Shown: piece by piece, positions 1 through 30,691 of the stretch | Position numbering within the stretch: position 1 is the stretch's first letter | Layout: each line of letters begins with the position of its first letter | NCBI GenBank assembly: GCA_964343575.1 | Contig: CAYFJV010000002.1 | Span: forward strand, 69,585 to 133,584 | Direction: 5' to 3' | Source of the DNA: an uncultured Methanosarcinales archaeon | Lineage (GTDB): Archaea > Nanobdellota > Nanobdellia > Woesearchaeales > GW2011-AR9 | Length of the DNA: 64,000 bases | Translations under genes and position numbers: made by a program | The notes under the pieces: model-generated | The model's database searches: none | Told to the model about the DNA's origin: nothing | Seen by the model: only the letters and a program-made list of their open reading frames with translations

Positions 1-2027
1 TTGAAAAGTGGACAGTCAAGTACTAAAGATTCAAACTCTCCACCTTCTCCTGCAATATTAAAACCATTTTTGTTGTTGATTACTTTGAGCTTTTCTAGAT
101 GTTCTTGCGTGAGCGGAGTGTTGAGCCAAGTTTTATCGATTCCTTCACCTGCAATTGCTGTGAGAATGATAGTGAAGTTGTTGTTGATTACTTCTTGCAT
201 GTGCTGTACTTGCGGCTTATGCCAAAGTGGAGAGAATATTTTGAGTCCTAATTTGTCACAGATCTTTTCGATGCGTTCTCGTTGGTATCGTGAGAAAAGT
301 GCTCCCGAAACAATGCCATCGATCTTATGTTTCTCTTTTGCTCGTTTGATTGCCTTTTCTAGGTCTTTAAGCTCTTCTTCTTTCTCTCCTTGTGTTTCCT
401 GAATGATGATGGGTAATTCCATGGCTTTTGCTTGGAGCTCGACAAGTTCGGTTCCTGCGGATTGAAACATGTAAGAATGTGGGTTTTTGCTTTTGAGGGT
501 GATGAGACAAGAAAGCTCATAATTTTGCCTTTGCATAATCAGTGCTGCGCTGGTGCTATCTTTTCCTGAGCTGAACAATACTCCAAGTTTGAGATTATGT
601 TCGGGATAGAAAGTTCGAAGGTAAGCAGACTTTCCTTTGAACTTGTTTTTCTTTGCAAGCTTGCCAAGAGCACTATCAATTCTACTCCCGTACTGCGCTG
701 CTTTCTTTTTTCGTAAGGAGAACTCTTCTGAGATGCCTTTTTCTAGTGCGATTTCTCTTAAAATGTATTTTCCATAGCCTTCTGCGATCTTGTACTCTTC
801 AGGTATTTTGAGAGCGTAGTTGACTAGATCCTTGTCAAGGAAGGGAAGTCTGAGCTCAATGTTATTATCCATGGTGAGGACATCGTCACGGTAAAGGTCT
901 CGCTCATAGATTTTTCTCAGGCCCGCTAAGCATTCTTCATTGATGTGCTTTGCTTGCTTGTGCCTTTCATAGCCGGCAAAGATCTCTTCTGATCCTAAGC
1001 CAGAGAAGATCACTTTACAGCCATCCTTTTTGGCTGCTGCTGCTGCGAGGTAGAAAGTTAATGCTACTCCAACTTTTATCACATTGGAGTCTTCAATAAG
1101 CGGCACTAAGTGCTTGAGTTTAGCTGGAATTTCTTCTTCTTTGATTTTGATAACTTTATGTTTGAGCTTGAGTTCCTGTGCAACTTTAAGGGCTGCTGTG
1201 AGATCTTGCGGGACAGTTGTTTCTGAGTCCAAAGCTGCCGTGTAACAAGTGAAGTCGACATTTTTTTCCTTAAGGGTCTTTGCAATGAAGGTTGAGTCGA
1301 TCCCTCCTGAAAAAAGGAGTGCCACTTTTTTTTGAGGAAGGCGTTTTTCTATGGCTAAATCTAGAAGGGAGGCTAATTTTTGCTTTATTCCTTCCTTGCT
1401 TTCCTTATGTTCTGGTGTAATTGTGAAGAATTTTCTTTGAATTTGCTTGGTCTTCTTTGTCACAGTATCGTATACTAGTATCTGACGAGGGTTAAGCTCT
1501 TGGATGTCAATGTGGCCTAGTTTCTCGAGAGCTTTTGCTTCGGAAGTGAAGGTGAAGGCATCTGTGTTCCACGTGAAATGAAGGGGTTTCACGCCGAGAA
1601 GATCTCTAGCAATAATGATCTGATTTTTGCTCCAATAAGCAAAAGCGTAAACACCATCAAGTTCGTCTATCTTTTTGAGTTGGAATTTGTCGAGGAAGGC
1701 GTGGAGAAGCTCTGCATCGTTGTTTGCTTCTAGCTGATATTTTTCTTTGAGTTCTTGCCAGTTATAGATTTCACAGTTGGCTGTGAGCATGGTGTTTTCG
1801 TTTGATTTGAGTGGTTGTGGAATGTGGCCTACGATGGCATGCAGGGTGTGTCCAAGGATGGTGTCTCCCTTGATTGGTTTGAGTTCTTTTGCTGTTTTTT
1901 TGAGTTGAGTTGTGGTTTTGTTGGTGATTCCACAACCATCTTTTCCTCTGTTTTGGAGTGTTGTGAGGGCTTGGATAGCTTGCGCTGCTGCATTTTCTTG
2001 TCCACTGATTCCTATGATGCCACACAT
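1..2027 (-). CDS. Partial CDS running off the window start: asparagine-synthetase-like glutamine amidotransferase fused to a C-terminal DUF71/Dph6-type PP-loop ATPase domain
   Basis: Hand translation of the minus strand from the ATG at 2027 is uninterrupted to position 1. The N-terminus reads MCGIIGISGQ...NRGKDGCGI...CEIYNWQEL, a class II Ntn amidotransferase like AsnB. The AsnB synthetase PP-loop (LLFSGGIDSTFIA) and GSEEIFAGYERH...RLPFLDKDLV follow. A second PP-loop domain then reads LGVLFSSGKDSTSAALIM and ends with GEGGEFESLVLDCPLF, the hallmark MJ0570/Dph6 C-terminal motif. The ORF track shows nothing here because the ORF has no stop within the window. Confidence 0.7.
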   Translation of the reverse strand, partial: MCGIIGISGQENAAAQAIQALTTLQNRGKDGCGITNKTTTQLKKTAKELKPIKGDTILGHTLHAIVGHIPQPLKSNENTMLTANCEIYNWQELKEKYQLEANNDAELLHAFLDKFQLKKIDELDGVYAFAYWSKNQIIIARDLLGVKPLHFTWNTDAFTFTSEAKALEKLGHIDIQELNPRQILVYDTVTKKTKQIQRKFFTITPEHKESKEGIKQKLASLLDLAIEKRLPQKKVALLFSGGIDSTFIAKTLKEKNVDFTCYTAALDSETTVPQDLTAALKVAQELKLKHKVIKIKEEEIPAKLKHLVPLIEDSNVIKVGVALTFYLAAAAAKKDGCKVIFSGLGSEEIFAGYERHKQAKHINEECLAGLRKIYERDLYRDDVLTMDNNIELRLPFLDKDLVNYALKIPEEYKIAEGYGKYILREIALEKGISEEFSLRKKKAAQYGSRIDSALGKLAKKNKFKGKSAYLRTFYPEHNLKLGVLFSSGKDSTSAALIMQRQNYELSCLITLKSKNPHSYMFQSAGTELVELQAKAMELPIIIQETQGEKEEELKDLEKAIKRAKEKHKIDGIVSGALFSRYQRERIEKICDKLGLKIFSPLWHKPQVQHMQEVINNNFTIILTAIAGEGIDKTWLNTPLTQEHLEKLKVINNKNGFNIAGEGGEFESLVLDCPLF

Positions 2028-7548: not shown

Positions 7549-7623
7549 TGGGGCTGCCCGGATTTGAACCGGGGTTCAGCGGTCCCAAACCGCTAGTGAT
7601 AGACCAAGCTACACTACAGCTCC
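7549..7623 (-). tRNA. tRNA-Pro (anticodon UGG)
   Basis: The minus-strand sequence GGAGCTGTAGTGTAGCTTGGTCTATCACTAGCGGTTTGGGACCGCTGAACCCCGGTTCAAATCCGGGCAGCCCCA folds as a cloverleaf. The anticodon stem AGCGG/CCGCT closes the loop TTTGGGA (anticodon TGG, G37). The T-arm is CCCGG-TTCAAAT-CCGGG. The acceptor stem GGAGCTG/CAGCCCC has one A3:C70 mismatch. No CCA is encoded; the gene is followed by a T-run. Confidence 0.65.
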
Positions 7624-17645: not shown

Positions 17646-20600
17646 TTACTTCCCCATAAACGCGCCCAGACCCACTTGCTTATCTTTGGCTTTACCAAAG
17701 ACGGTGTCAATGTTATGTTTAAGCAGATTAATGGTTTGCTTCAAGTAGGGAGAAAAATCGTATTTCTGCGCAAGCTCAAGGCTTGGTTCAAGATACTTCA
17801 CTACCGATCCTTCAGAGATGGTAAAAATTATCTTTCCTGTTTTACAAGTATGGCACTTATTGCTTATCGGTGGGCGACGATATTTCGTGTTACATTTCCC
17901 GCAACGAAAGCCTTGCATAGAAAACTTTCTAAAATTCCCTTTGATATCCGCTAAAAAGTGTCGCTGGATTACCATTCGAGCAACATCATCCATATCAACT
18001 GCGCGCACTTTTCTTGCGATTTCCATTTGACCGAATAATTTTTCTTTCATACTCGGCAAAATTTTGTAGGCTGAGCAGTTTACTCCTTTGTTAAAGTTGT
18101 CAACATGGTGTGTAAAACCAAAACCTTCATACTGTTCTGGAGTATCAAGCTTGTGATCAAGCTGTACGATTTTCTTTTTTTCTTTACCATAACGCACTTC
18201 CCAAGGAGCTTTCATTTCCAACGCTGCTTCATAAAGTTCTAAAGGATAACGCCATTCCATATCAACTCCTAAGACTTGGTCGTCAACCTCACTTGGAGAA
18301 AGTACTGGGGTGAGTACCAGCGCAGCATCCATGGTTGATCCCCTACTACTTGGAAGATATCTCTTGGAGAAATTAAGTAAACCATCAAGAAGGAGCATTA
18401 CTGCTGCTTCGTCACCATCGCAGTCCCTTCGCAGTCCCGCATGGTACATTGGGTGCGTAATAAGCCCTTGCGTGTGTGCAAAACCAATAATTCTCCCCAC
18501 CGTTCCTGCAGAAATGTGCGGAGCTAAACCAATTACTAAATGACCCACAAGATCTTTTTCATTTTTTACTTTATAGAAGGGTTTGAGACCATAGTGGTTG
18601 ACCAGCATATCATCAATAAACTGCGCTACCCTTGTGAGCACTTGCGCAGCTGATTCTTCAAGCACATCAACGGCAGGCAAGATGACATCTTGTGGCCTCA
18701 TTTCCAAAATTTGGTCGTCATTTTCAAGGTATTTTCCATGAATGTCTCTTTCATAACCAAGTTCTTTGAGTCTTTCAATACTTGTTCCAATCTCTTTTGG
18801 CTTGAAATGGGTAAGAGGTAGTTCAGTACAATCGTAGCGCGTGGTGCCATCTTTATTTACGGCAACGTTGTGTTTTGCTCGCAAGATGCCTTTCATTAAG
18901 TGTTCAGCAATTTTTTCTCTGTTGCTTGTCCCACGGACCCCTTTGATAAGATCGGGAATGATTTTGGTATTGAGTTTCTTTTTGAGAGCATCTACAATTT
19001 CGATAATCTCAATCTTTTGTAAGAGTTTTTCTTGCTCAAACTCTTCTGTTGGTTCTCCTGTTTGATGGCAACAACGAAAAGGACTAAGCTTACCTTCTTT
19101 GGTCTTGAACATTTTAATGGGAGCGTTAATCTCTCCCTCTTCAAGAGCTGCTTGAATGCTTCGCATTCTTCCTCCTTCTTCTCCAACTGGAAAAAGTACG
19201 TGAGGAGAGCCCGTCATTTTGCGCATCTTGGCTTTTTCTGGTCTTCCCATTCGCGCGCCGATAAAAGTTCCTGCCTTATCACGCTGTTTTATGGGCGCGT
19301 GCTGATTAAGGTATCTAAGAGGATTTTTGTAGCTTCCTTCTTTGAGAGTTTTGAGAGAGAGAGAAAGATTTTTGATCTCTTCTAGCGTTGAAAAATTGAG
19401 TAAGAAAGAGAGTACTTGACTCTCTGTTTTCTCAAGTACAATATTTTCTTTATTGATTAATTGATGAGGGATCCCTAGCAATTCGAGTGCTTGCTTTGCT
19501 TCTTGGCAAGCTTGCTCTTTTTTGTCAAAAGGAATGATGATTTTTTTGATCTCTTCGCTCTTTTCTTCCTTCTTTAGTTTTGAAGAGGAGAGAATAGATA
19601 TAAGAGTTTGAAATTGTCGCATAGCCAGTAGTTTCCAAAAGTAAGTAAAGTCAGAGTGTAATGGTACTTGAAGCTGCTTGCTAATCGTCTTTGCTTCTTG
19701 AAATGTTGGTGAGAAGAAAAGTGGCTTTTGGATGTATTTGAGAAAATTTTCTGTATCTATTTTGAAATCACTTGCAGCCTTGCTTAAATGCTCTTTAGTT
19801 GGAATCTCTACTTCGATTGCATATTTTTCTCTTATTGTTTTTTCTACTTCTTGCGCCCACCATTCTGGACAATACCCCGCGGGGACCAGTTTGTGTCCAT
19901 TCTCAGAAAAATCTCCATAATTAAACAAGATATCTCCAAGGTAAAGTACTTCCTCAACCTCGTTAGCATGTTGTTTTGCTAGCTCTTGGGTAGGAAGTTG
20001 TAACACATTTCCATTATTGAGCCGTACAATCGGTCCTTCAAGCGTGTCGCAAACAGTTACCGTCGCTGCTTTTCCGGGTCGCTCTACTTTCATTTGCGTT
20101 CCGATGGCAATGAACTTGTCAAGCACCACAAGCGTCGCTGGGTGTAAAGCTGCTGCAGAAAACCCAGAGGTTCTTCCTCTTCCGTAACGAAGACGAAATC
20201 CTCCCTCTCTTACTGGATGTGTAAGTACGGGTCTTCCTGCAACCATATCTGAAATAAAGGTATTGTTTGCCTTTACCTTTACTTCTTCCTCTTTTCCCTT
20301 TGCATTTTTGTCTTTTGGTCCTGCTTTTTTTTCCTTCTTCTGACCGTGCTGCGCATGAATCTTATCTTTAAGATCAATAAATTCTTTGATGAACTCCCAC
20401 TCTAAATCAAAATCCTTTCCCCACTTGCTTAGTCGTTTCCATAGTTTTGGTGCCTTTTGACAAAGTCCTTCTGCTACTACCAAACACATTCCTCCACGAA
20501 TGAGGTTTGTAGCAATTCTTGGAAGGTCTTTATAATTAGAAACCTCAATTTTTTCAGTTGGATCCCCGTCAACTTCAACAGGCAAATGAGAGAGCATAAA

Positions 20601-21251
20601 GTTTAACTCTTCATCACTTGGATGGTATTGGAGGTTGGTTACCCGATCATGATAATCATGCACTTCTGCAGTGTAACGTTTTACTTCGGTTTCATTCGGA
20701 TCGTAAGGAGCATAACCCATCTTTACTCGAACATAATCAGCAAGAATAACACTTGTGGAGGAAGCGGTACCCCCTGCTCCTCGAATTGGTCCAGCGTATC
20801 TTAGCGCAAGGTATTCTTTTCCATCCTTTCTTTTCTTTACTTCAATACCGATGAAGCCCTCCAAAGGTGCTGCCACAATCCCAAGTGTGAGGTAGGCAAA
20901 GCCTGTTCTGATTCCCACTTCAATTGCTTCTTTTTTGTTTTTGAATTTACAAAATTTTTCTTTGGCAACTTCTTCGGCGATTTTGAAACCGACGCGCCAA
21001 TCAAGCGTTCCGTATTCTTTTTCTAACTCTTGAACACGCTCAGGAATATTTGTTTCTAGAATTTGGGGGGCCACAATGCTCACAAGTCCAAGCACCCGAT
21101 CTGCCATGGTGTTTGCCAAGATGATTTCTGGTTTGTCTTCGGGATCGAGTTGTTTTGCTCTTGCTTGGTTAGCGATGGTGTAGCAGATGTCGACATCCTT
21201 TCGTAAATTTTCGAAGTATTTACTAATGGTTGGGGAAGCGACTATTGCCAT
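17646..21251 (-). CDS. polC: DNA polymerase D large subunit (DP2)
   Basis: 1201 aa with conserved DP2 segments throughout, including the catalytic region (GDEAAVMLLLD) and C-terminal Zn fingers (CGKCNTKYRRPPISNKCHTCK). Length is typical; no intein is apparent. Confidence 0.95.
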   Translation of the reverse strand: MAIVASPTISKYFENLRKDVDICYTIANQARAKQLDPEDKPEIILANTMADRVLGLVSIVAPQILETNIPERVQELEKEYGTLDWRVGFKIAEEVAKEKFCKFKNKKEAIEVGIRTGFAYLTLGIVAAPLEGFIGIEVKKRKDGKEYLALRYAGPIRGAGGTASSTSVILADYVRVKMGYAPYDPNETEVKRYTAEVHDYHDRVTNLQYHPSDEELNFMLSHLPVEVDGDPTEKIEVSNYKDLPRIATNLIRGGMCLVVAEGLCQKAPKLWKRLSKWGKDFDLEWEFIKEFIDLKDKIHAQHGQKKEKKAGPKDKNAKGKEEEVKVKANNTFISDMVAGRPVLTHPVREGGFRLRYGRGRTSGFSAAALHPATLVVLDKFIAIGTQMKVERPGKAATVTVCDTLEGPIVRLNNGNVLQLPTQELAKQHANEVEEVLYLGDILFNYGDFSENGHKLVPAGYCPEWWAQEVEKTIREKYAIEVEIPTKEHLSKAASDFKIDTENFLKYIQKPLFFSPTFQEAKTISKQLQVPLHSDFTYFWKLLAMRQFQTLISILSSSKLKKEEKSEEIKKIIIPFDKKEQACQEAKQALELLGIPHQLINKENIVLEKTESQVLSFLLNFSTLEEIKNLSLSLKTLKEGSYKNPLRYLNQHAPIKQRDKAGTFIGARMGRPEKAKMRKMTGSPHVLFPVGEEGGRMRSIQAALEEGEINAPIKMFKTKEGKLSPFRCCHQTGEPTEEFEQEKLLQKIEIIEIVDALKKKLNTKIIPDLIKGVRGTSNREKIAEHLMKGILRAKHNVAVNKDGTTRYDCTELPLTHFKPKEIGTSIERLKELGYERDIHGKYLENDDQILEMRPQDVILPAVDVLEESAAQVLTRVAQFIDDMLVNHYGLKPFYKVKNEKDLVGHLVIGLAPHISAGTVGRIIGFAHTQGLITHPMYHAGLRRDCDGDEAAVMLLLDGLLNFSKRYLPSSRGSTMDAALVLTPVLSPSEVDDQVLGVDMEWRYPLELYEAALEMKAPWEVRYGKEKKKIVQLDHKLDTPEQYEGFGFTHHVDNFNKGVNCSAYKILPSMKEKLFGQMEIARKVRAVDMDDVARMVIQRHFLADIKGNFRKFSMQGFRCGKCNTKYRRPPISNKCHTCKTGKIIFTISEGSVVKYLEPSLELAQKYDFSPYLKQTINLLKHNIDTVFGKAKDKQVGLGAFMGK

Positions 21252-21425: not shown

Positions 21426-21833
21426 CTATACCCAAGATACTAAAATTGCTGCAGCAACTAAAACAGTTACTAACCAATACGCTCCATTAAGGAAAAAGAG
21501 CTTAACATCTTTTCTCTCCCAAAGCACAGGGCCCAAAGCAAGCGGCATCATAAACCCTAACCAAAGCCAAAAACCAAGCATGAGCCCTTGTGGAACTGTT
21601 GCTGCTCCTGTAAGATTTACAAAACGGTCAAGCACATAGACCATAACTAAGGTTGCTAGAAAGCCAATGAACATGTGCCCAGCCATACCTTCTTTTTGCG
21701 CCTTTTGCATATCTTTTTTCTTGAGGCCGGTTAGTTTCATCCACATTGATCCAAAGACTTTTGGGTGATACCAGACCATTCCAAGTACCATTGCAGCAAG
21801 CGCTGCTACTAAAACAGAGACATAGTTTACCAT
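21426..21833 (-). CDS. Hypothetical integral membrane protein (4 TM)
   Basis: Hydrophobic 135-aa core from MVNYVSVLVAALAAMVLG. The upstream Lys/Asn-rich extension in the track ORF is probably not translated. Confidence 0.45.
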   Translation of the reverse strand: MVNYVSVLVAALAAMVLGMVWYHPKVFGSMWMKLTGLKKKDMQKAQKEGMAGHMFIGFLATLVMVYVLDRFVNLTGAATVPQGLMLGFWLWLGFMMPLALGPVLWERKDVKLFFLNGAYWLVTVLVAAAILVSWV

Positions 21834-21925
21834 TGTATTTACCTCTTTTTGTTTATTCTTTTGTTTGTTTTTTAGATTTGTTTTGCTACTTATCTTATTG
21901 AGATAGTTAGAAGAAAGAATTTGCA

Positions 21926-23716
21926 CTATATAAATTTCATTACTTTTACTTCTCTCGTCTTTAAGTTAATTACTGGTACCCTCCCTGGCTGCGGATCATG
22001 GCCTAACTTTTCTTGAAACTTTGTTCTTGCTTGCCAACAACTGCCACTCATCATGGTAATTCCCTTATAATTTGCAATGGCAGAATAATGGATGTGGCCA
22101 GTAATCATAATATCTGGAACTTTTTTGATAAGGAGCGGATCTTCGTTGTGAGAAGGTAAGTAAGGAGTTGATTTGAATGCAGGTGCGAGATGTCTTCGCT
22201 TGAGTAAGTATTTCATAATGAGGTCTGCTCGATGATAGCCACCGTTGTTTCGAATGCTATCAACATTTGCTACATAAAAATCAAAACTATAACCATGGTA
22301 CATGAGCACATTAATGCCAGGGAAATCCTCGGTTTTAGCAATGTTAATCATAGAAGGGTTGCTGACAAGCTCAACGTTTTCCATCTCGTGAAGATCTTCG
22401 GTGTATTCTTTATAGAAAACTGGCTGGGGTTCTGCTAAGTGCACAACGTCGTGGTTTCCTGGACAAATAAAGATCTTTTTATCTTTAGGAATCTCTTTGA
22501 TGAGGTCAGCAAAAGCCTTGTACTGTCCTTCAATGGTTTGAATAGTAAGCTCATCTGGTTGTTTGGGATAGATTCCTACACCATCAACCACATCTCCAGC
22601 AATGAAGATGTACTTTACTTTTCTAGCAATATTTTTTTGATCTTCTGATCCGACTTCTGCTCTTGCCCAAGAGATGAACTTTTTGAAGGCATCTTCCATG
22701 AAATAGCTCGATCCCACATGGATGTCTGAGAGAAAAATCGCATATTCTTCTTTAGGCGCCTTTCGCATTTCTTTGGTGCTTGGTACATCTGGCCAAACTA
22801 TTTGATCAGCAAAAATAATATCTCCGCCACTCACTCCCGTTATCCCAATTACTTCATCAAAAGTAAGTTCTTTTCCTTGTTCTAAAAGATCGGGCTTGTT
22901 CTTACTGATGAGAATTTTGATATCTCCTGTAATATCTTCAACGGTGAGCAAAAGATTTCCATTTTTAGTTTCAGCAATTTCGCTTACAAGGCCAATGACA
23001 GCAATGGTTTCTCTCTCTCTTTTCTGCCTTACTCTACTAATGCTGGTGACATTTTTCATTTCTGGGTGTTGGCGAATTACTTTCTCTAGGAAGTAATAAC
23101 GGGTTTTGAAAATGTTGGCAAAATCTTTTACAGCGTATTTCTTAGAAATGGTTTCAAAAGAATAGACGACCTCATATTGGTACTCTTGCTGAATTTTTTC
23201 AAGAACTGCAAGGTCCTCTTGGGCATCAATAGTAGTTACTGTTTCTTTGAGTTGAATGCTCTGGCCATCAAGAGCTTTTTCTAAGCTGCTCTTTTCTACT
23301 TCTGTTTCAAGACTAGAAAACACTTCTTCATGACTGCTCGCTGCACTGCTTGCAAGGTTAGAGCCTTGGGAGCTTGCTGCTGCTTGTGGAACTTGAAGAG
23401 AAGAAGAGCGTAAATCTTGAAGTTGCGCCTCGTAACGGTCAAAATCTCCTTGACGCTCAAAATCAACTCGATATTTATCTGCTTCATACCAATCAACAAA
23501 GCTTTCCTCTTTTCCCACAATGTCAGCATAATCTGGAGTGAGCACCAACATGTCTTGCTCTGCTTCTAACTTAGCAATAAGCTCAGCTTCAATCCCTTGC
23601 TCAAGCTGTTCTTTGCTTAAAAGTACACCCTTTTCGAAGAGTTTTTTGATTAAATCTTCTTTGCTTTGCGTCATTTTATTTGATTCTGCAGTTGCAGAGA
23701 TGTGGGAATCTCCCAC
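21926..23716 (-). CDS. polB: DNA polymerase D small subunit (DP1), 3'-5' exonuclease of the calcineurin/Mre11 phosphoesterase type
   Basis: Metallophosphatase motifs (GDVVDG, ICPGNHD, GHIH) sit in the C-terminal half; the N-terminal OB-like region is typical of DP1. Confidence 0.9.
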   Translation of the reverse strand: MGDSHISATAESNKMTQSKEDLIKKLFEKGVLLSKEQLEQGIEAELIAKLEAEQDMLVLTPDYADIVGKEESFVDWYEADKYRVDFERQGDFDRYEAQLQDLRSSSLQVPQAAASSQGSNLASSAASSHEEVFSSLETEVEKSSLEKALDGQSIQLKETVTTIDAQEDLAVLEKIQQEYQYEVVYSFETISKKYAVKDFANIFKTRYYFLEKVIRQHPEMKNVTSISRVRQKRERETIAVIGLVSEIAETKNGNLLLTVEDITGDIKILISKNKPDLLEQGKELTFDEVIGITGVSGGDIIFADQIVWPDVPSTKEMRKAPKEEYAIFLSDIHVGSSYFMEDAFKKFISWARAEVGSEDQKNIARKVKYIFIAGDVVDGVGIYPKQPDELTIQTIEGQYKAFADLIKEIPKDKKIFICPGNHDVVHLAEPQPVFYKEYTEDLHEMENVELVSNPSMINIAKTEDFPGINVLMYHGYSFDFYVANVDSIRNNGGYHRADLIMKYLLKRRHLAPAFKSTPYLPSHNEDPLLIKKVPDIMITGHIHYSAIANYKGITMMSGSCWQARTKFQEKLGHDPQPGRVPVINLKTREVKVMKFI

Positions 23717-23788: not shown

Positions 23789-24991
23789 TTAATCCTTTAA
23801 TTGAATGGAACGTTCAATAAGTTCTTTAAGTTTTGCTTTAATACCTTCTTCTAAGGACATAGAGATCTCTCTTGTTCGCCCATACCTTCCTTTGGAAACG
23901 ATTTTTGCATTGATGATCCCCAGCATATCAAACTCGGCTAGAATATCAGAGACTCTTCTTTGGGTAAGCACATTGAAACGTACTTTCTTACAAAGTGTTT
24001 GATACACATCATAAATCTCTCCAGTGTAGATGGTCTTTTTCTTTGGTGCAAGTAGGAGGATTGCGTAGAGGACGGCTTGAAATTGCTTTGGTTGGCTTAC
24101 TACGGCATTAATGATCTTATCTGATTCAATTTTTTTCTCTGCTTCATCAAGGTGCTCTATCTCAATTGTTTTAGAAGTGCTTCTCTCTGCTAATTCTCCT
24201 GCAACTCTGAGAAGATCAATTGCTCTTCTTGCATCGCCATGTTCTCTAGCGGCGTAGGCAGCACATTTTTCGATAACTCCGGGTTTGACAACCTCTGGTC
24301 GAAAAGCACTTTGCGCCCTTTTTCTTAAGATGTCCTGGATCTGTAAGGCATTATAAGGAGGAAAGATAAGTTCTTCTTCGCTCAGAGAAGATTTTACTCT
24401 GGGATCTAAGTTCTCTGCAAAAATAAGATTGTTAGAGATTCCAATAAGACAAATTTGTGCATTTTTGAGCTCTGAATTAATCCTTGTAAGATTATAGAGA
24501 ATCTCATCTCCTATTTTTTTAGTAAGCTGATCTATTTCATCAAGGACAAGCAAAATAAGCTTCTTTTCTTTGTCAACAAGAGAATAGAATATATTGTAGA
24601 CTTCATCTGTTGGAAGACCGGTGGCAGGAACTTCTTTACCAAACTCCTTAATGAGCTGGGCTATGAGCCGATACTCAGTATCTGCTATCCTTTTTAATTT
24701 ACAATTTACATAGATGCTTTGCAAAGGAACTTCGTTTTTCTTTGCAATCTCTTCCATTGACTGTAAGATGTATTTTATAGAGAGTGTTTTCCCGGTTCCT
24801 GTTTTTCCATAAATAAGAAGGCTAGAGGGTTTTTCTAAACGCAGAGCGGGAGCTAAGATGTTTGCAACCTCTTGAATAAGTTCCTCACGAAATAAGACTT
24901 CTGATGGAACATAGGCAGAGAGAAGATACTCTTTACTTAAAAAGATTGAATCTTTCTTAAGAAAGTTTTCGAAAAAATCTGTAATCCCCAT
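23789..24991 (-). CDS. cdc6: Orc1/Cdc6 replication initiator (AAA+ ATPase with C-terminal winged helix)
   Basis: Walker A motif GKTGTGKT, Walker B motif LVLDEID, sensor motifs and a C-terminal wH domain. Confidence 0.95.
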   Translation of the reverse strand: MGITDFFENFLKKDSIFLSKEYLLSAYVPSEVLFREELIQEVANILAPALRLEKPSSLLIYGKTGTGKTLSIKYILQSMEEIAKKNEVPLQSIYVNCKLKRIADTEYRLIAQLIKEFGKEVPATGLPTDEVYNIFYSLVDKEKKLILLVLDEIDQLTKKIGDEILYNLTRINSELKNAQICLIGISNNLIFAENLDPRVKSSLSEEELIFPPYNALQIQDILRKRAQSAFRPEVVKPGVIEKCAAYAAREHGDARRAIDLLRVAGELAERSTSKTIEIEHLDEAEKKIESDKIINAVVSQPKQFQAVLYAILLLAPKKKTIYTGEIYDVYQTLCKKVRFNVLTQRRVSDILAEFDMLGIINAKIVSKGRYGRTREISMSLEEGIKAKLKELIERSIQLKD

Positions 24992-25790
24992 TGGAAATGC
25001 CCCACCCCTTAGTTTCTTCTGGAAAGCCTTTTTTGAGAAAATATTCTCTTTGGCTTGAATTGTTGAAGTGGTTTGTTTCCTTTAAATCTTTTTTGTTCAT
25101 TGAAGAATGAAGTAGAAAAGAAGTATATTCTGTTCTCTTTACTTGAATGGTTGTTTCGTAGTTGTTTTATCATTGTTCTTTTGCGTTGGGAGGAGAGATG
25201 AACTACACGAGTTAAATGCACTCTTTTTCTTTTCCTTTTTCTTCTCATTTTTTCTTTTATTTGTTTCTCTCTTGTTTGTTTTCTATTTATATTATTTATT
25301 TCAATATTGTAAATAATAATAATAATAATAAGCTTAGCTAAAAAAGAAGATTTAGAAAAAGCATTTGCGATTTGAGAACTGCGCTTAACTTTTCAGAGAG
25401 CAGTGTTTCTTTTTTTAGGTTTTTTTCTTTTTTCTTCTAACTCTAAAAATTTCTTTTTCTTTTCTAAACAAAGAGAAGATTTCTTTTCCTTTCTTACTTT
25501 TCTTTGTTTTCCTTTTTTTTTTGGTTTTTTGAAAAAGAGTTTTCCATGAGAAGAGAGGGGGATGGTGCGTTTGTGCTTGTTAGTGTTTGGAGAAAAGAAT
25601 ATTGGTTTCTTAGTTTTCTTCTTTTTGTGTTGTTTTTGACTATTCTTTGAAAGAATTTGAATGAATTGTATCGAAGGCGAGCCAAGTTTTTAACAAGTTT
25701 TTCTCTTCTTTTTTCTTTTTCTGACAATTTTTCCTCTTTTCCGGAAACATTTAAATAATAGTTTTGGCTGTTTTTTGCTAATGGTTCTTG
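24992..25790. other. Candidate chromosomal replication origin (oriC)
   Basis: An ~800-bp non-coding region lies immediately upstream of orc1/cdc6 and just beyond the orc1-DP1-DP2 gene array, the conserved Pyrococcus-type arrangement. It is extremely A/T-rich with long T/A tracts and an (AAT)6 microsatellite. It also contains GGAAA-type elements (CTTCTGGAAAG at about 25016 and the palindrome TTTCCGGAAAC at about 25738) reminiscent of mini-ORB cores. Confidence 0.45.
25312..25331. repeat. (AAT)6 microsatellite inside the putative origin region
   Basis: Directly visible as aataataataataataat. Confidence 0.9.
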
Positions 25791-26626
25791 AGGCATTGCT
25801 GAATCCATTTTCTGTTAAGAAAAAACCCTGGGAAATGTTTTTTGCGGGAATGCTCTATGCCATTGTGGGAATGCTTCTTTCTTACTTTGTCTTTCGACAG
25901 CTTTCTGGCTTTCTCATGGTCTTTCTTATATCAATAGCAGCTATGCCTTTGGTCTATAATGCTATTAAGAGAGAAGAAGAGATTGATGTTCAAGTTAAAG
26001 GAGAGTGGCGTATTCTCAAAGAGCACAGTAGAGTTATCTTTTTTCTCCTCTACTTTTTCTTAGGAATAGTTATTAGTTTAACCATTGCTTACGTTGTTTT
26101 ACCTTCGGCGATGGTGAGTGAAATCTTTTACATTCAAGCAAATGCGATTCAAGATGTTAATAACAGTGTTTCAGGAAATCTGGCTTTGTTTGGTTTGTTT
26201 AAGGCAATCTTTTTGAATAACCTCAAGGTACTTTTCTTTTGCCTTGTCTTTTCTTTCCTTTATGGGATGGGAGCTATCTTTATTCTTACTTGGAATGCTT
26301 CAGTTGTAGCGGCAGCAATTGGTAATTTGATAAAGACAAGCCTTGCAGATGCTGGTGCGAATTTAGGTATGCAAAATATTGCTTTATACTTTAATGTAGG
26401 AGCGTTTAGCTTTATGAGGTACATGACCCACGGTCTTCTGGAGATTACTGCCTATTTTGTTGCTGGTTTGGCAGGAAGTATCATTTCTATTGCCGTAATT
26501 CGGCATAATCTTGAGAATGAAGCAGTACTTTATGATGCGCTTGATTTAATCTTCATTAGTTTAGGTATTTTGCTTATTGCTGCAATTGTAGAAGTCTATG
26601 TAACACCACAGTTCTTCCACGCTTGA
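25775..26626 (+). CDS. Polytopic membrane protein, DUF95/SpoIIM-like
   Basis: 283 aa with about 6 TM helices and no soluble domains. The family assignment is from memory. Confidence 0.4.
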   Translation: MLMVLEALLNPFSVKKKPWEMFFAGMLYAIVGMLLSYFVFRQLSGFLMVFLISIAAMPLVYNAIKREEEIDVQVKGEWRILKEHSRVIFFLLYFFLGIVISLTIAYVVLPSAMVSEIFYIQANAIQDVNNSVSGNLALFGLFKAIFLNNLKVLFFCLVFSFLYGMGAIFILTWNASVVAAAIGNLIKTSLADAGANLGMQNIALYFNVGAFSFMRYMTHGLLEITAYFVAGLAGSIISIAVIRHNLENEAVLYDALDLIFISLGILLIAAIVEVYVTPQFFHA

Positions 26627-26654: not shown

Positions 26655-27440
26655 CTAAAGAATTTTTACTTTCCCTGGAAGATTTTGAAAGATTTCTCCC
26701 ATCTCAAGCATACGCTCAATTGCTTTTTCTGTTTCAGAATTGTTAAGGAGATCAATAAGCTCCTCAATAGCAACACCATTTCCTTGATCTAATTCTTTTA
26801 TTTTCTCTCTAATGAGCTCATTGAGTTGTACTTTTTGCCCTAAGTTTTCAAGGCTTTGATTGATTTCTTCTTTGACTTCACTTATTTCGTCCTTATTTTC
26901 TATCTCAATGGTTTCTACTGTAATCTTTTCATCCTCTTTTTTCGCTTCTTGTTCTGTATGCAATTGCTCTGAGTGTAAAGCTGGCTCTTGAACTGCTGCT
27001 TGGTGTTTTTCTTTATCTACTTGGATCTCTTCTTCTTTTTGTTCTTCCTTATCCTGTTTAAGTTCAAGGGCCCTTAGCTCAAGCCACTCTTTTTCAACTA
27101 CTTTTAGAATTTCAGGTGCTAAATATTTTTCCTGGTTAAAGACCCGCACTCTTGCGATGCAAAGGGCAATGTCACCAACGTTGAGCTCTTCAAGACGTTT
27201 GTGCTCTTCAAAAACTCGAGCTAGAATTTGGCCTGAACCATCGTCGAGAAGCACAGAAGTAGTTGAACCATTTTTGGCAATAGAAAGAATAATGGCAATA
27301 ATGTTTACTCGGTAGAGTTTTTCTTGCTTTGTTGTGAGCAAAAAGTTGGCTTGTCCTTCCTCTTCTGTAATATATTCTCCAGAAATGATAGCCCCAATGG
27401 TGGTCTTTCTTGCTGTGTGTCTGGTGTAAGAGGCTTGCAT
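26655..27440 (-). CDS. OB-fold plus C-terminal winged-helix protein (RPA32/Stn1-like architecture), acidic linker
   Basis: The N-terminal ~110 aa have a beta-rich OB-like pattern (LYRVNIIAIILS...VLLDDGSGQILARVFEE...VGDIALCIARVRVF). A Glu/Lys-rich linker follows. The C-terminal ~50 aa are wH-like (VAIEELIDLLNNSETEKAIERMLEMGEIFQ). The gene is adjacent to MCM. Confidence 0.35.
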   Translation of the reverse strand: MQASYTRHTARKTTIGAIISGEYITEEEGQANFLLTTKQEKLYRVNIIAIILSIAKNGSTTSVLLDDGSGQILARVFEEHKRLEELNVGDIALCIARVRVFNQEKYLAPEILKVVEKEWLELRALELKQDKEEQKEEEIQVDKEKHQAAVQEPALHSEQLHTEQEAKKEDEKITVETIEIENKDEISEVKEEINQSLENLGQKVQLNELIREKIKELDQGNGVAIEELIDLLNNSETEKAIERMLEMGEIFQNLPGKVKIL

Positions 27441-27636: not shown

Positions 27637-29670
27637 CTATAATCTTTGCACAAAGCCCTTTTTTGGCTCAAAGATGTCTCCTGACCTTCTTAATTTGGTA
27701 AGTACCTCATCAACATCATCTTCAGAAATATTCTTCTCTTTAGCCGCTTGCATAATCATTTCAATTGGAATGATTTTTTCTCCAACTTCTTTCTCTACTT
27801 TGCTAACTAGATCTTTAATAATGCTGATTTTGCTTCGTTGTGTTGCCGTAATCTTACTGCTAATACGGTCAATGTCAATCTTTCCAGTCTCACTGTCTTT
27901 TGCAATTTGGTTAAGGCTATAATCAAGTAGCTCAATTGCTTTTTGCGCGTCTTTTTTGGTAACTTTTTTTGCCAGGCGCAACTTTGCTGAACCTTCAGCT
28001 AAACGCACCAGAGCTTCAAGCTGCCGAGCCGAAATGGGGATGGAGCGAACTCCTCCTTCTTCAACATTGCCAAAGTTTCTCATATTTACATAATATTCTT
28101 GAATCTCTTGAATTGCGGCGTCTGTAAGTTCTGGGTTTGCAGTATTTCTCACATACATGAAATATTTTTTTAAGACGTCAGTTGGAATATCTGATTTTGC
28201 TCTTTCCGGATTTTGATGAAGTTTAAGGATAAAGGAAGCCATGATTTTGTCTTTCTCTTTGCTTGGTAAATCCTTTACTGGAAAAATAAGATCAAATCTG
28301 TTGATGAGTGCCGGTGGGAGGTTGATTTGATTTGCTATTAAGTCGTAGGGATCGAATCTTCCAAACTTTGGGTTTGCTGCTGCCAGAAGAGTGGTTTCAC
28401 AGCGGAGTGTTGCTTGAATGTTTGCTTTACTCACACTTACTGTTTGCTGTTCCATCGCCTCGTGCAAGGCAGATCTATCTTCCTTGGTCATCTTATCCAT
28501 CTCATCAATAATTGCAAAACCACGGTTAGCAAGGACTAATGTTCCTGCTTCTAAGCTCCATCCGCCAAGAAATTCATCCTTAACAACACTTGCCGTAAGA
28601 CCTGCCGCGCTTGCCCCTTTACCGCTAGTAAAACGAGATTTTGGTGCAACCTTGGTTATCCTCTTAAGCAGCTGAGATTTTCCTGCTCCGGGATCTCCTA
28701 TTAAGAGCATGTGCATATCTCCTCTTGTTTTTACACCATCAGGTCTTGCTTTTTTACAACCGCCAGCGAGTTGAAGCACAAGCGCTTCTTTGATTTTATC
28801 ATGCCCATAAATGGATGGGGCGATATTTTCGGAAAGATAACCATGTACTTGAGGATGTTTAGCAATATCTTTTATCTGTTCAAGTTCGTCTTCAGTAATT
28901 TTCATCTCGGAAGGATCATTTTCCATCGGTTCAATGAAGTTCGCTTCTAAGATAAGATCATATTTAGTTGACTTTCCTCCGCTTCGTAAGGTGATTGGTA
29001 CTTCGCTTACCCAACCGTAGAGCTTTACGCGCGCCCCTGGGCTGCTTTTTCTCTCTGGGATGGGACTCACCAAGTCTCCTTTAAGAAAAACGTTCATACG
29101 CTTTGGTTGCGCGCCGTCAAGATCATCTGGTGATTCTTCAAGTACCAATGCTTGTCCATCGATGAGCTCTTTGCTCATCTCTTTGAATTTTCCCTTTCTT
29201 CCGCAAGAGCATCTGCTTGGCTCTTTGAATTTTTGATCAAGCTGCAGTACCTTGAGAATGTTCCCGCAAGATGGGCATTCAAAAGTTGCACGTGCTACAT
29301 GGGGACGCACATCACTTTTTTGTCTAACAATTCCATCACACCATAGAAATTTTCCAAGGTGTTTGCTTCGAATTTCACTTACTCTCACTTTAAGAGATTC
29401 AGGAAAGTTTTTGAGACGTACATTGAACTTGTCTAATTTTTTGGGAAGATCAAACTCTTTGATAGCTAACTCTGCAGCTTTGAGAAGGTTCTCTGGGTCT
29501 TCAATAATTTCTTCAGTAAGCTCGGTGTTAAATTTTAGGAGAGCAGAAAAGTCGAGCACCATAGAATTTTGTCCTTTTCGCACTGCTTCAAGAAGTTGCG
29601 CGTGATAGTGCTGTTCAATAAACTCTCTAAAAAGAGTAATTTGTTTGTCTACTTCCAATGTCCACCCCAA
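27637..29670 (-). CDS. mcm: MCM replicative helicase
   Basis: N-terminal Zn finger (CPSCGN...CSCG), Walker A GDPGAGKSQLL, Walker B IDEMDKM, arginine finger and C-terminal wH domain. 677 aa with no intein. Confidence 0.95.
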   Translation of the reverse strand: MGWTLEVDKQITLFREFIEQHYHAQLLEAVRKGQNSMVLDFSALLKFNTELTEEIIEDPENLLKAAELAIKEFDLPKKLDKFNVRLKNFPESLKVRVSEIRSKHLGKFLWCDGIVRQKSDVRPHVARATFECPSCGNILKVLQLDQKFKEPSRCSCGRKGKFKEMSKELIDGQALVLEESPDDLDGAQPKRMNVFLKGDLVSPIPERKSSPGARVKLYGWVSEVPITLRSGGKSTKYDLILEANFIEPMENDPSEMKITEDELEQIKDIAKHPQVHGYLSENIAPSIYGHDKIKEALVLQLAGGCKKARPDGVKTRGDMHMLLIGDPGAGKSQLLKRITKVAPKSRFTSGKGASAAGLTASVVKDEFLGGWSLEAGTLVLANRGFAIIDEMDKMTKEDRSALHEAMEQQTVSVSKANIQATLRCETTLLAAANPKFGRFDPYDLIANQINLPPALINRFDLIFPVKDLPSKEKDKIMASFILKLHQNPERAKSDIPTDVLKKYFMYVRNTANPELTDAAIQEIQEYYVNMRNFGNVEEGGVRSIPISARQLEALVRLAEGSAKLRLAKKVTKKDAQKAIELLDYSLNQIAKDSETGKIDIDRISSKITATQRSKISIIKDLVSKVEKEVGEKIIPIEMIMQAAKEKNISEDDVDEVLTKLRRSGDIFEPKKGFVQRL

Positions 29671-29820: not shown

Positions 29821-30384
29821 TTAAGCGTTAAGTAACTTTTCTAAGTTTTGGATTAACTTATCTGTTGCTTCATGCACTTCTTCTTCGGTTCGACAACCAG
29901 TACACACAATTTTCCCGTTACTGAAAAGCAAGAAGGTTGCTCGTGTTCCTTTTAGTTTGTGTACAAGACCTGGAAACTGCTCAGGCTCGTATTCTGTGTT
30001 AGGCAATTTAAGTCCTAAGAAGTTCAAATTAAGTGCCATACCAATGGATCCAGCAGCTACAATGTTCTGCACATTGATCTCAGGTTTAATGGTAACGTGA
30101 ATGTCAAGCTTTTTAAGGCTCTTAATAATGCTTTGAATACTCTTTTCTACTTCACCAAGATTTTTTGCTCCAGTACATACAATTTTTCCACTAGAGAAGA
30201 TAAGTGCTGAAGTCTTTGGATTTTTGATTCGAAGAACAAGTCCAGGAAATTGCTCTGGATTGTATTCAGTGTTTGGCAGAGTTGCTGCCATTTTCTCTAA
30301 AGGAATATCTTTTTCTAAGGAGCTGGACACAACAATGTTTACGATAGTGATTTCTTTTTTTCCTGTTTTTTTCTTTGTTGCCAT
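29821..30384 (-). CDS. tbp: TATA-box binding protein (TBP)
   Basis: Two direct TBP repeats: NIVVSSSL...GKIVCTGAKN and NIVAAGSI...GKIVCTGCRT. Confidence 0.9.
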   Translation of the reverse strand: MATKKKTGKKEITIVNIVVSSSLEKDIPLEKMAATLPNTEYNPEQFPGLVLRIKNPKTSALIFSSGKIVCTGAKNLGEVEKSIQSIIKSLKKLDIHVTIKPEINVQNIVAAGSIGMALNLNFLGLKLPNTEYEPEQFPGLVHKLKGTRATFLLFSNGKIVCTGCRTEEEVHEATDKLIQNLEKLLNA

Positions 30385-30691
30385 GAATTAACGCCTCCGG
30401 AAGTGATTTGAGTGTTTTATTCTCTTCTTTCTCGGACTTTTAAGGAATTCTTTACAGACTATTTAAATATTCCCTTTATAAATGGTTTCTTTACCTTTTT
30501 AAAGGAGAAGGAGAGTCTTCCCTTCTCAGTAAAAAAGACCCCCTCATTTCCGATGGAAAGAGCCTAAAAACAAGTAATTTTTGTATTTTGGCTGTTTTAT
30601 TTTAGGCAGCTTTGCTTTTTTTGGCCTTTGTTTGAGATTGAAGCCTTTCTTCGAGAAAGTATTTTAAAATGGACATTTTCTTTGTTTCTCT

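Follow-up and report, generated by a model that had tools for sequence, protein, structure and literature searches.

A probable origin recognition box-type replication origin beside orc1 in a Woesearchaeota genome fragment

A 64,000-nt stretch of DNA from an uncultured archaeon (contig CAYFJV010000002.1, positions 69,585 to 133,584; hereafter the window) holds, between the initiator gene orc1/cdc6 and a gene for a SpoIIM-like membrane protein, a gene-free spacer that is probably a chromosomal replication origin of the Woesearchaeota (DPANN), of the oriC1 or Pyrococcus oriC kind. The spacer adjoins orc1, contains at least two origin recognition boxes (ORBs), which are inverted around an AT-rich duplex-unwinding element (DUE), is served by an initiator of the Orc1-1 type, and shares this architecture with the corresponding spacers of related genomes. 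We are highly confident of the ORB-DUE-ORB architecture beside an Orc1-1-type initiator and of its conservation across Woesearchaeota; that replication fires from the spacer, and does so bidirectionally, we infer from the sequence. An original prediction made from the letters of the window had proposed an oriC-type region in a coding-free stretch of ~800 bp upstream of orc1. The stretch measured 789 bp (GC 0.29 vs. 0.40 window-wide), running from the orc1 start at 24991 (minus strand) to the ATG of the SpoIIM-like gene at 25781, and both its architecture and its conservation in relatives strongly support the proposal. We found no description of ORBs, oriC or skew for Woesearchaeota in the literature searched, and a 2026 preprint on Nanobdellota (10.64898/2026.05.13.725050) mentions none of these.

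The relatives used throughout were the 80 best genomic matches to the window Orc1 (labelled with L numbers), all of them Woesearchaeota-type metagenome-assembled genomes (DPANN, Nanoarchaeota/Nanobdellota), many carrying the label 'uncultured Methanosarcinales' and one that of Deltaproteobacteria. The gene order orc1-DP1-DP2 was kept in nearly all of 78 relatives, and the longer synteny TBP-MCM-OB-SpoIIM-spacer-orc1 in ~41. A counterpart spacer of 379–1634 bp was present in the 41 syntenic relatives, each AT-richer than its own locus. When k-mers common across these 41 orc1-SpoIIM spacers were counted de novo, two families emerged: TTCCAT[CGA][GA]GAAA followed by ...AAGGGGT, and GTTAAATGCAAT. 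A full 22-nt element, TTCCAYNRGAAAYNRRGGGGT, was found near each end of almost every spacer, in opposite orientations and with its G-run pointing outward. Judged by its agreement with published consensus sequences, TTCCAYNRGAAAYNRRGGGGT is the archaeal ORB. It matched the 22-nt ORB consensus of Methanomassiliicoccales, GTTCCAGTGGAAATGG-AGGGGT, at 16–18 of 22 positions, and the window copy nearest orc1 (ORB-L) matched the pan-archaeal consensus, CTTCCAGTGGAAACGAAAGGGGT, at 18 of 23 (both by our own alignment; consensus sequences from PMC4153887 Table 2). The euryarchaeal consensus GTTCCAGTGGAAAC-AAA----GGGGG (PMC1868953) is also fitted. The main departure is at the dyad centre, where T stands at 75% and the other consensuses have G.

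A position weight matrix (PWM) was built from the relatives' ORBs only, with the window excluded, and scanned over both strands (128 kb). Four strong matches were obtained in the window (Table 1), after which the next best dropped to 9.7 bits, and two of the four, ORB-L and ORB-R, lay in the spacer. The two are inverted relative to each other: the G-string of ORB-L faces orc1 and ends 12 nt before its ATG, and that of ORB-R faces the SpoIIM-like gene. The IUPAC pattern TCCANNRGAARNNRRGGGG matched three times in the window, twice in the spacer, against 0.00 expected from 100 dinucleotide shuffles. A PWM search had been suggested with the original prediction, which pointed to two words at the spacer edges, CTTCTGGAAAG at 25016–25026 and the palindrome TTTCCGGAAA at 25738–25747, as possibly degenerate ORBs or mini-ORBs. 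Both words are present there, and the left one proved to be part of the complete ORB-L. The right one is not an ORB: the palindrome scored below 8 bits, was absent from all 41 syntenic spacers, and overlaps the conserved B recognition element (BRE)/TATA promoter of the SpoIIM-like gene, with which its GGAAAC plus TTTAAATA aligns. The real second element, ORB-R at 25542–25562, had been missed, and both ORBs are full-length and canonical rather than degenerate. No cluster of more than five 13-bp mini-ORB repeats was found in the spacer, where TTCCANNRGAA occurs only twice, each time as a full ORB. A direct repeat, CCATTGGAAATG/CCCTGGGAAATG (family D14), was considered for mini-ORBs and rejected, both copies scoring low by PWM; one spans the start codon and 5' leader of orc1, and the other lies inside the SpoIIM coding sequence.

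The same matrix was highly selective in the relatives. Among 159 matches of at least 18 bits in 1.215 Mb of their loci, 145 were at most 1.7 kb upstream of orc1, 13 were at most 400 nt upstream of tbp, and the last (L063) was just upstream of mcm. Of 77 loci, 73 had an ORB in plus orientation no more than 300 nt from the orc1 start (32/36 among loci outside PWM training). Upstream sequence exceeded 1.3 kb in 56 loci, and 53 of these contained an inverted ORB pair (12/15 outside training). The pair remained with orc1 in the more distant L061–L080, where SpoIIM and MCM are elsewhere, and some relatives had one extra copy per side that lacked the G-string. No further ORB pair was detected with the PWM in 71 kb here (the window plus a 7.2-kb leftward extension, L083) or in 1.2 Mb of relatives' loci. 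Since more than 50 relatives have this layout, the element is of an ordinary kind, though hitherto undescribed in the lineage. The G-string of the orc1-proximal ORB (GGGGTG...; 25000–25008 in the window) usually ends 5–15 nt before the orc1 ATG in relatives, at the Shine-Dalgarno place, and by this position it may have a dual role.

DNA stability was calculated from nearest-neighbour stacking energies with several window sizes over the entire 64 kb. At every size listed the minimum fell between the ORBs: the least stable 40-mer was 25288–25327, the 60-mer 25272–25331 (8% GC), the 200-mer 25283–25482 and the 500-mer 25038–25537, and the least stable 100-mer is taken as the candidate DUE (Table 1). 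The inverted pair, 517 bp apart, brackets the least stable DNA of the 64 kb. An (AAT)6 tract noted originally at 25312–25331 was recovered by Tandem Repeats Finder as 6.7 units, and the ATT-repeat/ATATTGAAA stretch of the DUE aligns with the closest relative, L001. Similarly, among the relatives, 50 had both an ORB pair and a sequence of 8 kb or more; in these the locus-wide least stable 100-mer lay between the ORBs in 50/50 and the least stable 60-mer in 48/50, even though the inter-ORB interval takes up just 3.7% of the locus (p about 3e-66, binomial).

The window initiator gave its best PDB matches, over the full length, with Cdc6-1 of S. solfataricus (2QBY_A, 353 bits) and ORC1 of A. pernix (2V1U_A, 324 bits), whereas Cdc6-3 reached 157 bits and Cdc6-2 types about 60 bits. 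Its gene scored 405.7 bits with TIGR02928 (NCBIfam; cutoff 181), the winged-helix wing motif GRYGRT is conserved, and the Pfam domains Cdc6_lid and Cdc6_C are present. By these similarities the protein, with AAA+, ISM and winged-helix domains, is an Orc1-1/Cdc6-1-type ortholog of the initiators crystallised on ORB DNA. ORC1/Cdc6 is reported to be a single-copy core gene in Nanobdellota (10.64898/2026.05.13.725050).

Archaeal origins have been defined as an AT-rich DUE flanked by ORBs beside the initiator gene (PMC4010727; PMC5333045). Because the spacer has this published form, Orc1 binding, DUE melting and MCM loading are the most likely mechanism. The Orc1-1-type initiator from the adjoining gene would bind the inverted ORBs at 25004–25024 (minus) and 25542–25562 (plus), both of which match the consensus. 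The bound initiators would bracket the 517-bp AT-rich core, the centre of which (25255–25354), at the stability minimum, would melt, and MCM, encoded 2 kb off, would be loaded there. Orc1 at ORB-L probably also represses orc1: this ORB has a TATA-like AATATTTT (about -54) on one side and the orc1 start codon on the other, which makes autorepression likely.

A second conserved element of the spacers is the GTTAAATGCAATY box, invariant over 12–13 nt. The window copy gave the best match to a box PWM, points toward the DUE and is the only GTTAAATGCA in the window. A degenerate second copy, GTTAAGCGCAGT, is tentative; it would converge with the first across the DUE, and in a pairwise alignment it stands opposite an exact GTTAAATGCAAT of L001. 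Convergent box pairs around an AT-rich centre were present in L020, L026, L029 and L041. As an exact 9-mer the box was found in 27 of 65 loci, and it was enriched ~19-fold in orc1-upstream spacers (0.364 vs. 0.019 per kb). Beyond the spacer, occurrences of GTTAAATGCA were coding coincidences, among them the CVKCN of the DP2 Zn-finger; the exceptions were copies in L020, L022 and L023 that lie between orc1 and dp1. The box is thus not a general promoter motif. No described counterpart was found, and we treat the box, which flanks the DUE, as a putative site that probably binds an accessory factor.

The anatomy of the spacer from left to right is as follows: orc1 (leftward), ORB-L, ~185 bp, the GTTAAATGCACTC box, the DUE, the degenerate box, ~150 bp of T/C-rich DNA, ORB-R, ~180 bp, the SpoIIM BRE/TATA and the SpoIIM ATG. 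The outer 220 bp (25563–25780), with the SpoIIM promoter, is outside the origin core. A polypyrimidine/polypurine strand asymmetry of the spacer was not conserved across 51 relatives.

Table 1. Positions of the candidate origin elements, ORB matches and neighbouring genes in the window.
Feature	Position	Strand	Remarks
Whole orc1-SpoIIM intergenic spacer	24992..25780	.	789 bp, GC 0.29; predicted origin core plus two divergent promoters
ORB-L, TTCCAGAAGAAACTAAGGGGT	25004..25024	-	PWM match 25000-25027, 28.7 bits, second best in window; contains CTTCTGGAAAG
Box copy GTTAAATGCACTC	25211..25223	+	points right, toward DUE; best box-PWM match, 19.9 bits
Candidate DUE	25255..25354	.	15% GC; least stable 100-mer of window; includes (AAT)6.7
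Degenerate second box GTTAAGCGCAGT	25378..25389	-	points left; weak box-PWM match, 7.3 bits; tentative
ORB-R, TTCCATGAGAAGAGAGGGGGA	25542..25562	+	PWM match 25539-25566, 24.1 bits, third best in window
BRE/TATA promoter of SpoIIM-like gene, GGAAACATTTAAATA	25743..25757	+	overlaps palindrome TTTCCGGAAA (25738-25747)
tbp ORB, TTCCATCGGAAATGAGGGGGT	30537..30558	-	PWM match 30534-30561, 30.3 bits, best in window; solitary
ORB-like site, GTGTTCCACGTGAAATGAAGGGGTTTCA	1564..1591	+	PWM 22.8 bits; inside coding sequence
orc1/cdc6 initiator gene	23789..24991	-	Pfam Cdc6_C, Cdc6_lid, AAA; NCBIfam TIGR02928
DP1	21926..23716	-	Pfam; downstream of orc1
DUF1761 membrane ORF	21426..21926	-	Pfam; downstream of orc1
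DP2	17646..21251	-	Pfam; downstream of orc1
SpoIIM-like membrane protein gene	25781..26626	+	Pfam; far side of spacer
OB-fold ORF	26655..27440	-	Pfam, weak match
MCM	27637..29670	-	Pfam; 2 kb from origin
TBP	29821..30384	-	Pfam

The best PWM match in the window was a solitary ORB that precedes the TBP start codon by ~150 nt and heads a co-oriented tbp-mcm-OB string; neither a DUE nor an ORB pair was found there. An ORB of at least 18 bits, in either orientation and 100–250 nt upstream of tbp, was present in 12 of 35 relatives (L001, L008, L009, L011, L020, L022, L026, L029, L038, L039, L047 and L074) compared with 0.45% of background 400-nt segments, and L074 keeps it although its tbp has moved. 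Conservation of an ORB before tbp suggests that Orc1 regulates tbp/mcm expression. The remaining strong match (1564–1591, plus strand) falls within an asparagine-synthase/diphthamide-synthase-like coding sequence on the minus strand; by our estimate ~0.02 chance matches this strong would be expected (128,000 positions x 2^-22.8).

Strand composition weighs against the spacer as the dominant bidirectional origin. GC skew was positive almost everywhere in the window, and the cumulative curve rose, reached a plateau at 17–30 kb and rose again without forming a V. On the plus strand, GC skew at third codon positions (GC3 skew) was +0.2 to +0.4 in both gene orientations at 7.7–16.5 kb and 30.7–64 kb and near zero in the replication-gene cluster (16.5–30.4 kb), and the corresponding AT skew (AT3) was negative throughout, a leading-strand-like signature (G>C, T>A) without inversion at 25.3 kb. 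The leftward extension, which brings the DNA viewed to 71 kb in all, added no negative skew domain. Strongly skewed relatives kept one sign through the spacer (L017 and L009 negative, L052 positive, in orc1 orientation), both flanks of the orc1-sense strand were C-rich at third codon positions (negative GC3 skew) in about 71% of the relatives whose sequence reached beyond the cluster, and in 22 paired relatives the left-right difference in GC3 skew was not significant (p = 0.42). AT3 skew in 22 relatives shifted weakly in the expected direction (+0.05 to -0.06, p = 0.013). No switch of skew polarity was seen at the spacer in the window profile, in per-gene GC3 skew, in the paired relatives or in the 7.2-kb extension, and the cumulative GC-skew minimum that had been set in advance as a test of the original prediction was absent from the 71 kb and from the strongly skewed relatives. 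Moreover, the conserved ORB origin of Thermococcus kodakarensis is reported to be dispensable (PMC5663688), so a conserved origin sequence is no proof of use. The missing switch lowers our confidence in the spacer as the dominant bidirectional origin. It is not decisive, because an informative skew pattern was reported for only 18 of 224 archaeal genomes (PMC7111523), one DPANN genome has a skew switch next to cdc6 (PMC5905446), and some Candidate Phyla Radiation (CPR) bacteria show a monotonic, non-switching strand disparity (PMC7143001).

These observations might be taken to mean that the spacer acts as a control region bound by Orc1, or is a dormant origin, with Orc1 autoregulating orc1 (and tbp-mcm via the tbp ORB) and forks mostly arriving from elsewhere, or with replication started by recombination. 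The leading-strand GC3/AT3 signature of the plus strand on both sides of the spacer, the uniform skew sign in L017, L009 and L052, and the Thermococcus precedent (PMC5663688) speak for this reading, as do the overlap of ORB-L with the orc1 5' region and the solitary tbp ORB lacking a DUE or partner. However, autoregulation needs one promoter-near site, which leaves unexplained both the second inverted ORB 150–1300 bp away and the invariable placement of the least stable DNA between the ORBs (50/50). The reading also sits poorly with the single copy of ORC1/Cdc6 reported for Nanobdellota, with the lack of any other ORB pair in 71 kb or 1.2 Mb of relatives' loci, and with the rarity of informative archaeal skew (18/224; PMC7111523). 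We regard such a control region or dormant origin as unlikely, though it carries some real weight. A canonical ORB-DUE-ORB origin without inversion of strand asymmetry, which we think rather improbable, could imply replication that runs mainly in one direction, or is strongly asymmetric, away from orc1 toward mcm/tbp, with the box and the tbp-mcm ORB as a lineage-specific initiation/regulation circuit. If true, this would parallel the monotonic course of cumulative skew in some CPR bacteria (PMC7143001); since 71 kb and the 21-kb loci of relatives were viewed, a genome-wide monotonic skew is not established.

The content of the spacer itself bears on two further explanations. Two ORFs of 79 and 104 aa lie inside it, the public ENA gene call gives a 100-aa product, and the two ORBs are inverted repeats, as might be seen if the spacer concealed a gene for a small protein, a non-coding RNA or the remnant of a mobile element whose terminal inverted repeats mimic ORBs. 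The two ORFs, already doubted in the original prediction, are low-complexity and had no Pfam match and no tblastn match in 78 syntenic relatives, and an all-vs-all comparison of stop-free stretches (30 aa or longer) taken from 42 spacers yielded no family shared with the window; we rejected them as genes. The matches that this comparison did return were mixed-frame and confined to one subclade, which points to similarity at the DNA level within it. A conserved small gene in the relatives' spacers, named beforehand as evidence that would count against an origin, was found neither by tblastn nor in the 42-spacer comparison. Rfam at gathering thresholds returned only one tRNA in the whole window (7549–7623) and nothing in the spacer, and the sole result of a permissive search of the spacer for a hidden non-coding RNA was a spurious match to CrcZ (17 bits; threshold 95 bits). 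Repeats at the same orc1-adjacent place in more than 50 species-level genomes are unlike a mobile element, and this set of explanations, to which we assign very little probability, is already largely refuted. The spacer could also be merely a long AT-rich divergent promoter region, its ORB-like words being chance or ribosome-binding sequence. Both flanking genes do have their promoters in it, and the ORB-L G-string, GGGGTGGGG, occupies the Shine-Dalgarno place. ORB-R, in contrast, is ~220 nt from the SpoIIM start and thus not a ribosome-binding site, TCCANNRGAARNNRRGGGG occurs three times where 0.00 matches are expected, PWM matches across 1.2 Mb are almost exclusive to the orc1-upstream spacer, and no longer stretch of the window than these 789 bp is free of ORFs of 90 aa or more. 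Shuffling, DUE placement and PWM specificity effectively refute a promoter-only spacer, and we give it next to no credence. In the subclade of L020, L022, L026, L029, L038 and L041, a block of common DNA-level sequence near the orc1-proximal ORB showed up as mixed-frame blastp matches between spacer ORFs; the window lacks it.

Origins of Sulfolobus and Aeropyrum have three to four ORBs and belong to genomes carrying several origins as well as several Orc1 paralogs. The probable origin described here resembles Sulfolobus oriC1 and Aeropyrum pernix oriC1 in having the most closely related initiators (2QBY_A, 2V1U_A), an ORB dyad core plus G-string, and an origin that abuts the initiator gene (PMC4010727); it differs in that Nanobdellota are reported to have one ORC1 (10.64898/2026.05.13.725050) rather than several paralogs. 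The oriC of Pyrococcus abyssi and P. furiosus likewise lies upstream of a single cdc6/orc1 with DP1 and DP2 behind, in the order oriC-cdc6-dp1, and has two long ORBs forming an inverted repeat around AT-rich DNA, with a TTCC...GAA core and a G-run (PMC1904270). It also has many 13-bp mini-ORBs and a second ORB cluster inside dp1, whereas here the full ORBs number only two, a mini-ORB cluster is absent and dp1 contains no ORB, the solitary tbp ORB being found instead. In the P. furiosus ORB oligonucleotide TTCCAGTGGAAATGAAACTCTGGGGGG (reverse strand) the G-run follows GGAAAT by about 9 nt (PMC1904270), compared with 3 nt here.

Predicted origins of Methanomassiliicoccales share the 22-nt ORB layout, in which the G-string follows GGAAAY by 3 nt, and have inverted ORB pairs beside orc1/cdc6.1 and occasional solitary ORBs elsewhere (PMC4153887 Table 2). 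Their dyad centre, in contrast, is CCA-GT-GG rather than the CCA-TN-RG of Woesearchaeota, and their pairs are spaced by 39–256 bp against a Woesearchaeota median of ~600 bp. Haloferax volcanii oriC1 also occupies a spacer (1,360 bp) between divergent genes including orc1, with ORBs around AT-rich DUEs and the DP1 gene near (PMC1868953), but it has an extra halophile-specific G-string in the ORB, is one of multiple origins, and has demonstrated autonomously replicating sequence activity, whereas the window is known from sequence. Among CPR Microgenomates (Ch65, Collierbacteria, Beckwithbacteria) there are likewise ultra-small uncultivated organisms with one-sign skew (PMC7143001); these are bacteria with complete genomes, compared with the 71 kb and 21-kb loci used here.

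The results provide, for a large DPANN lineage that is uncultivated and whose genomes have so far simply been rotated to the orc1 gene, a sequence-level origin definition comprising the ORB consensus, the spacing, the DUE and an additional conserved box. It could serve for anchoring and checking assemblies and for coverage-based growth estimates, and the absent skew switch, the tbp-mcm ORB and the GTTAAATGCAATY box are testable leads on initiation control in a single-Orc1 archaeon. Nineteen of the 80 relatives' contigs end at most 600 nt upstream of orc1 (L002, L003, L021, L023, L031–L035, L046, L062, L067, L068, L072–L074 and L077–L079), which makes the AT-rich origin spacer a recurrent breakpoint of metagenome assembly.

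The flanking genes were assigned with Pfam (Table 1). The Pyrococcus-like order orc1-DP1-DP2 with a membrane ORF, pointed out in the original prediction, is borne out, DUF1761 lying between DP1 and DP2. On the other side of the spacer, the SpoIIM-like ORF as listed begins with TTG at 25775; the in-frame ATG at 25781, which gives the N-terminus MVLEALLNP, was the start used for aligning relatives. A BRE/TATA, GAAAYRTTTAAATA, is conserved ~30 nt upstream of this ATG in the window and most relatives, implying a leaderless or very short-leader mRNA. Between SpoIIM and MCM lies a 261-aa OB-fold ORF (Pfam E = 1.5e-4, no NCBIfam family), found at this place in ~45 relatives, which may be an uncharacterised single-stranded DNA-binding or replication factor.

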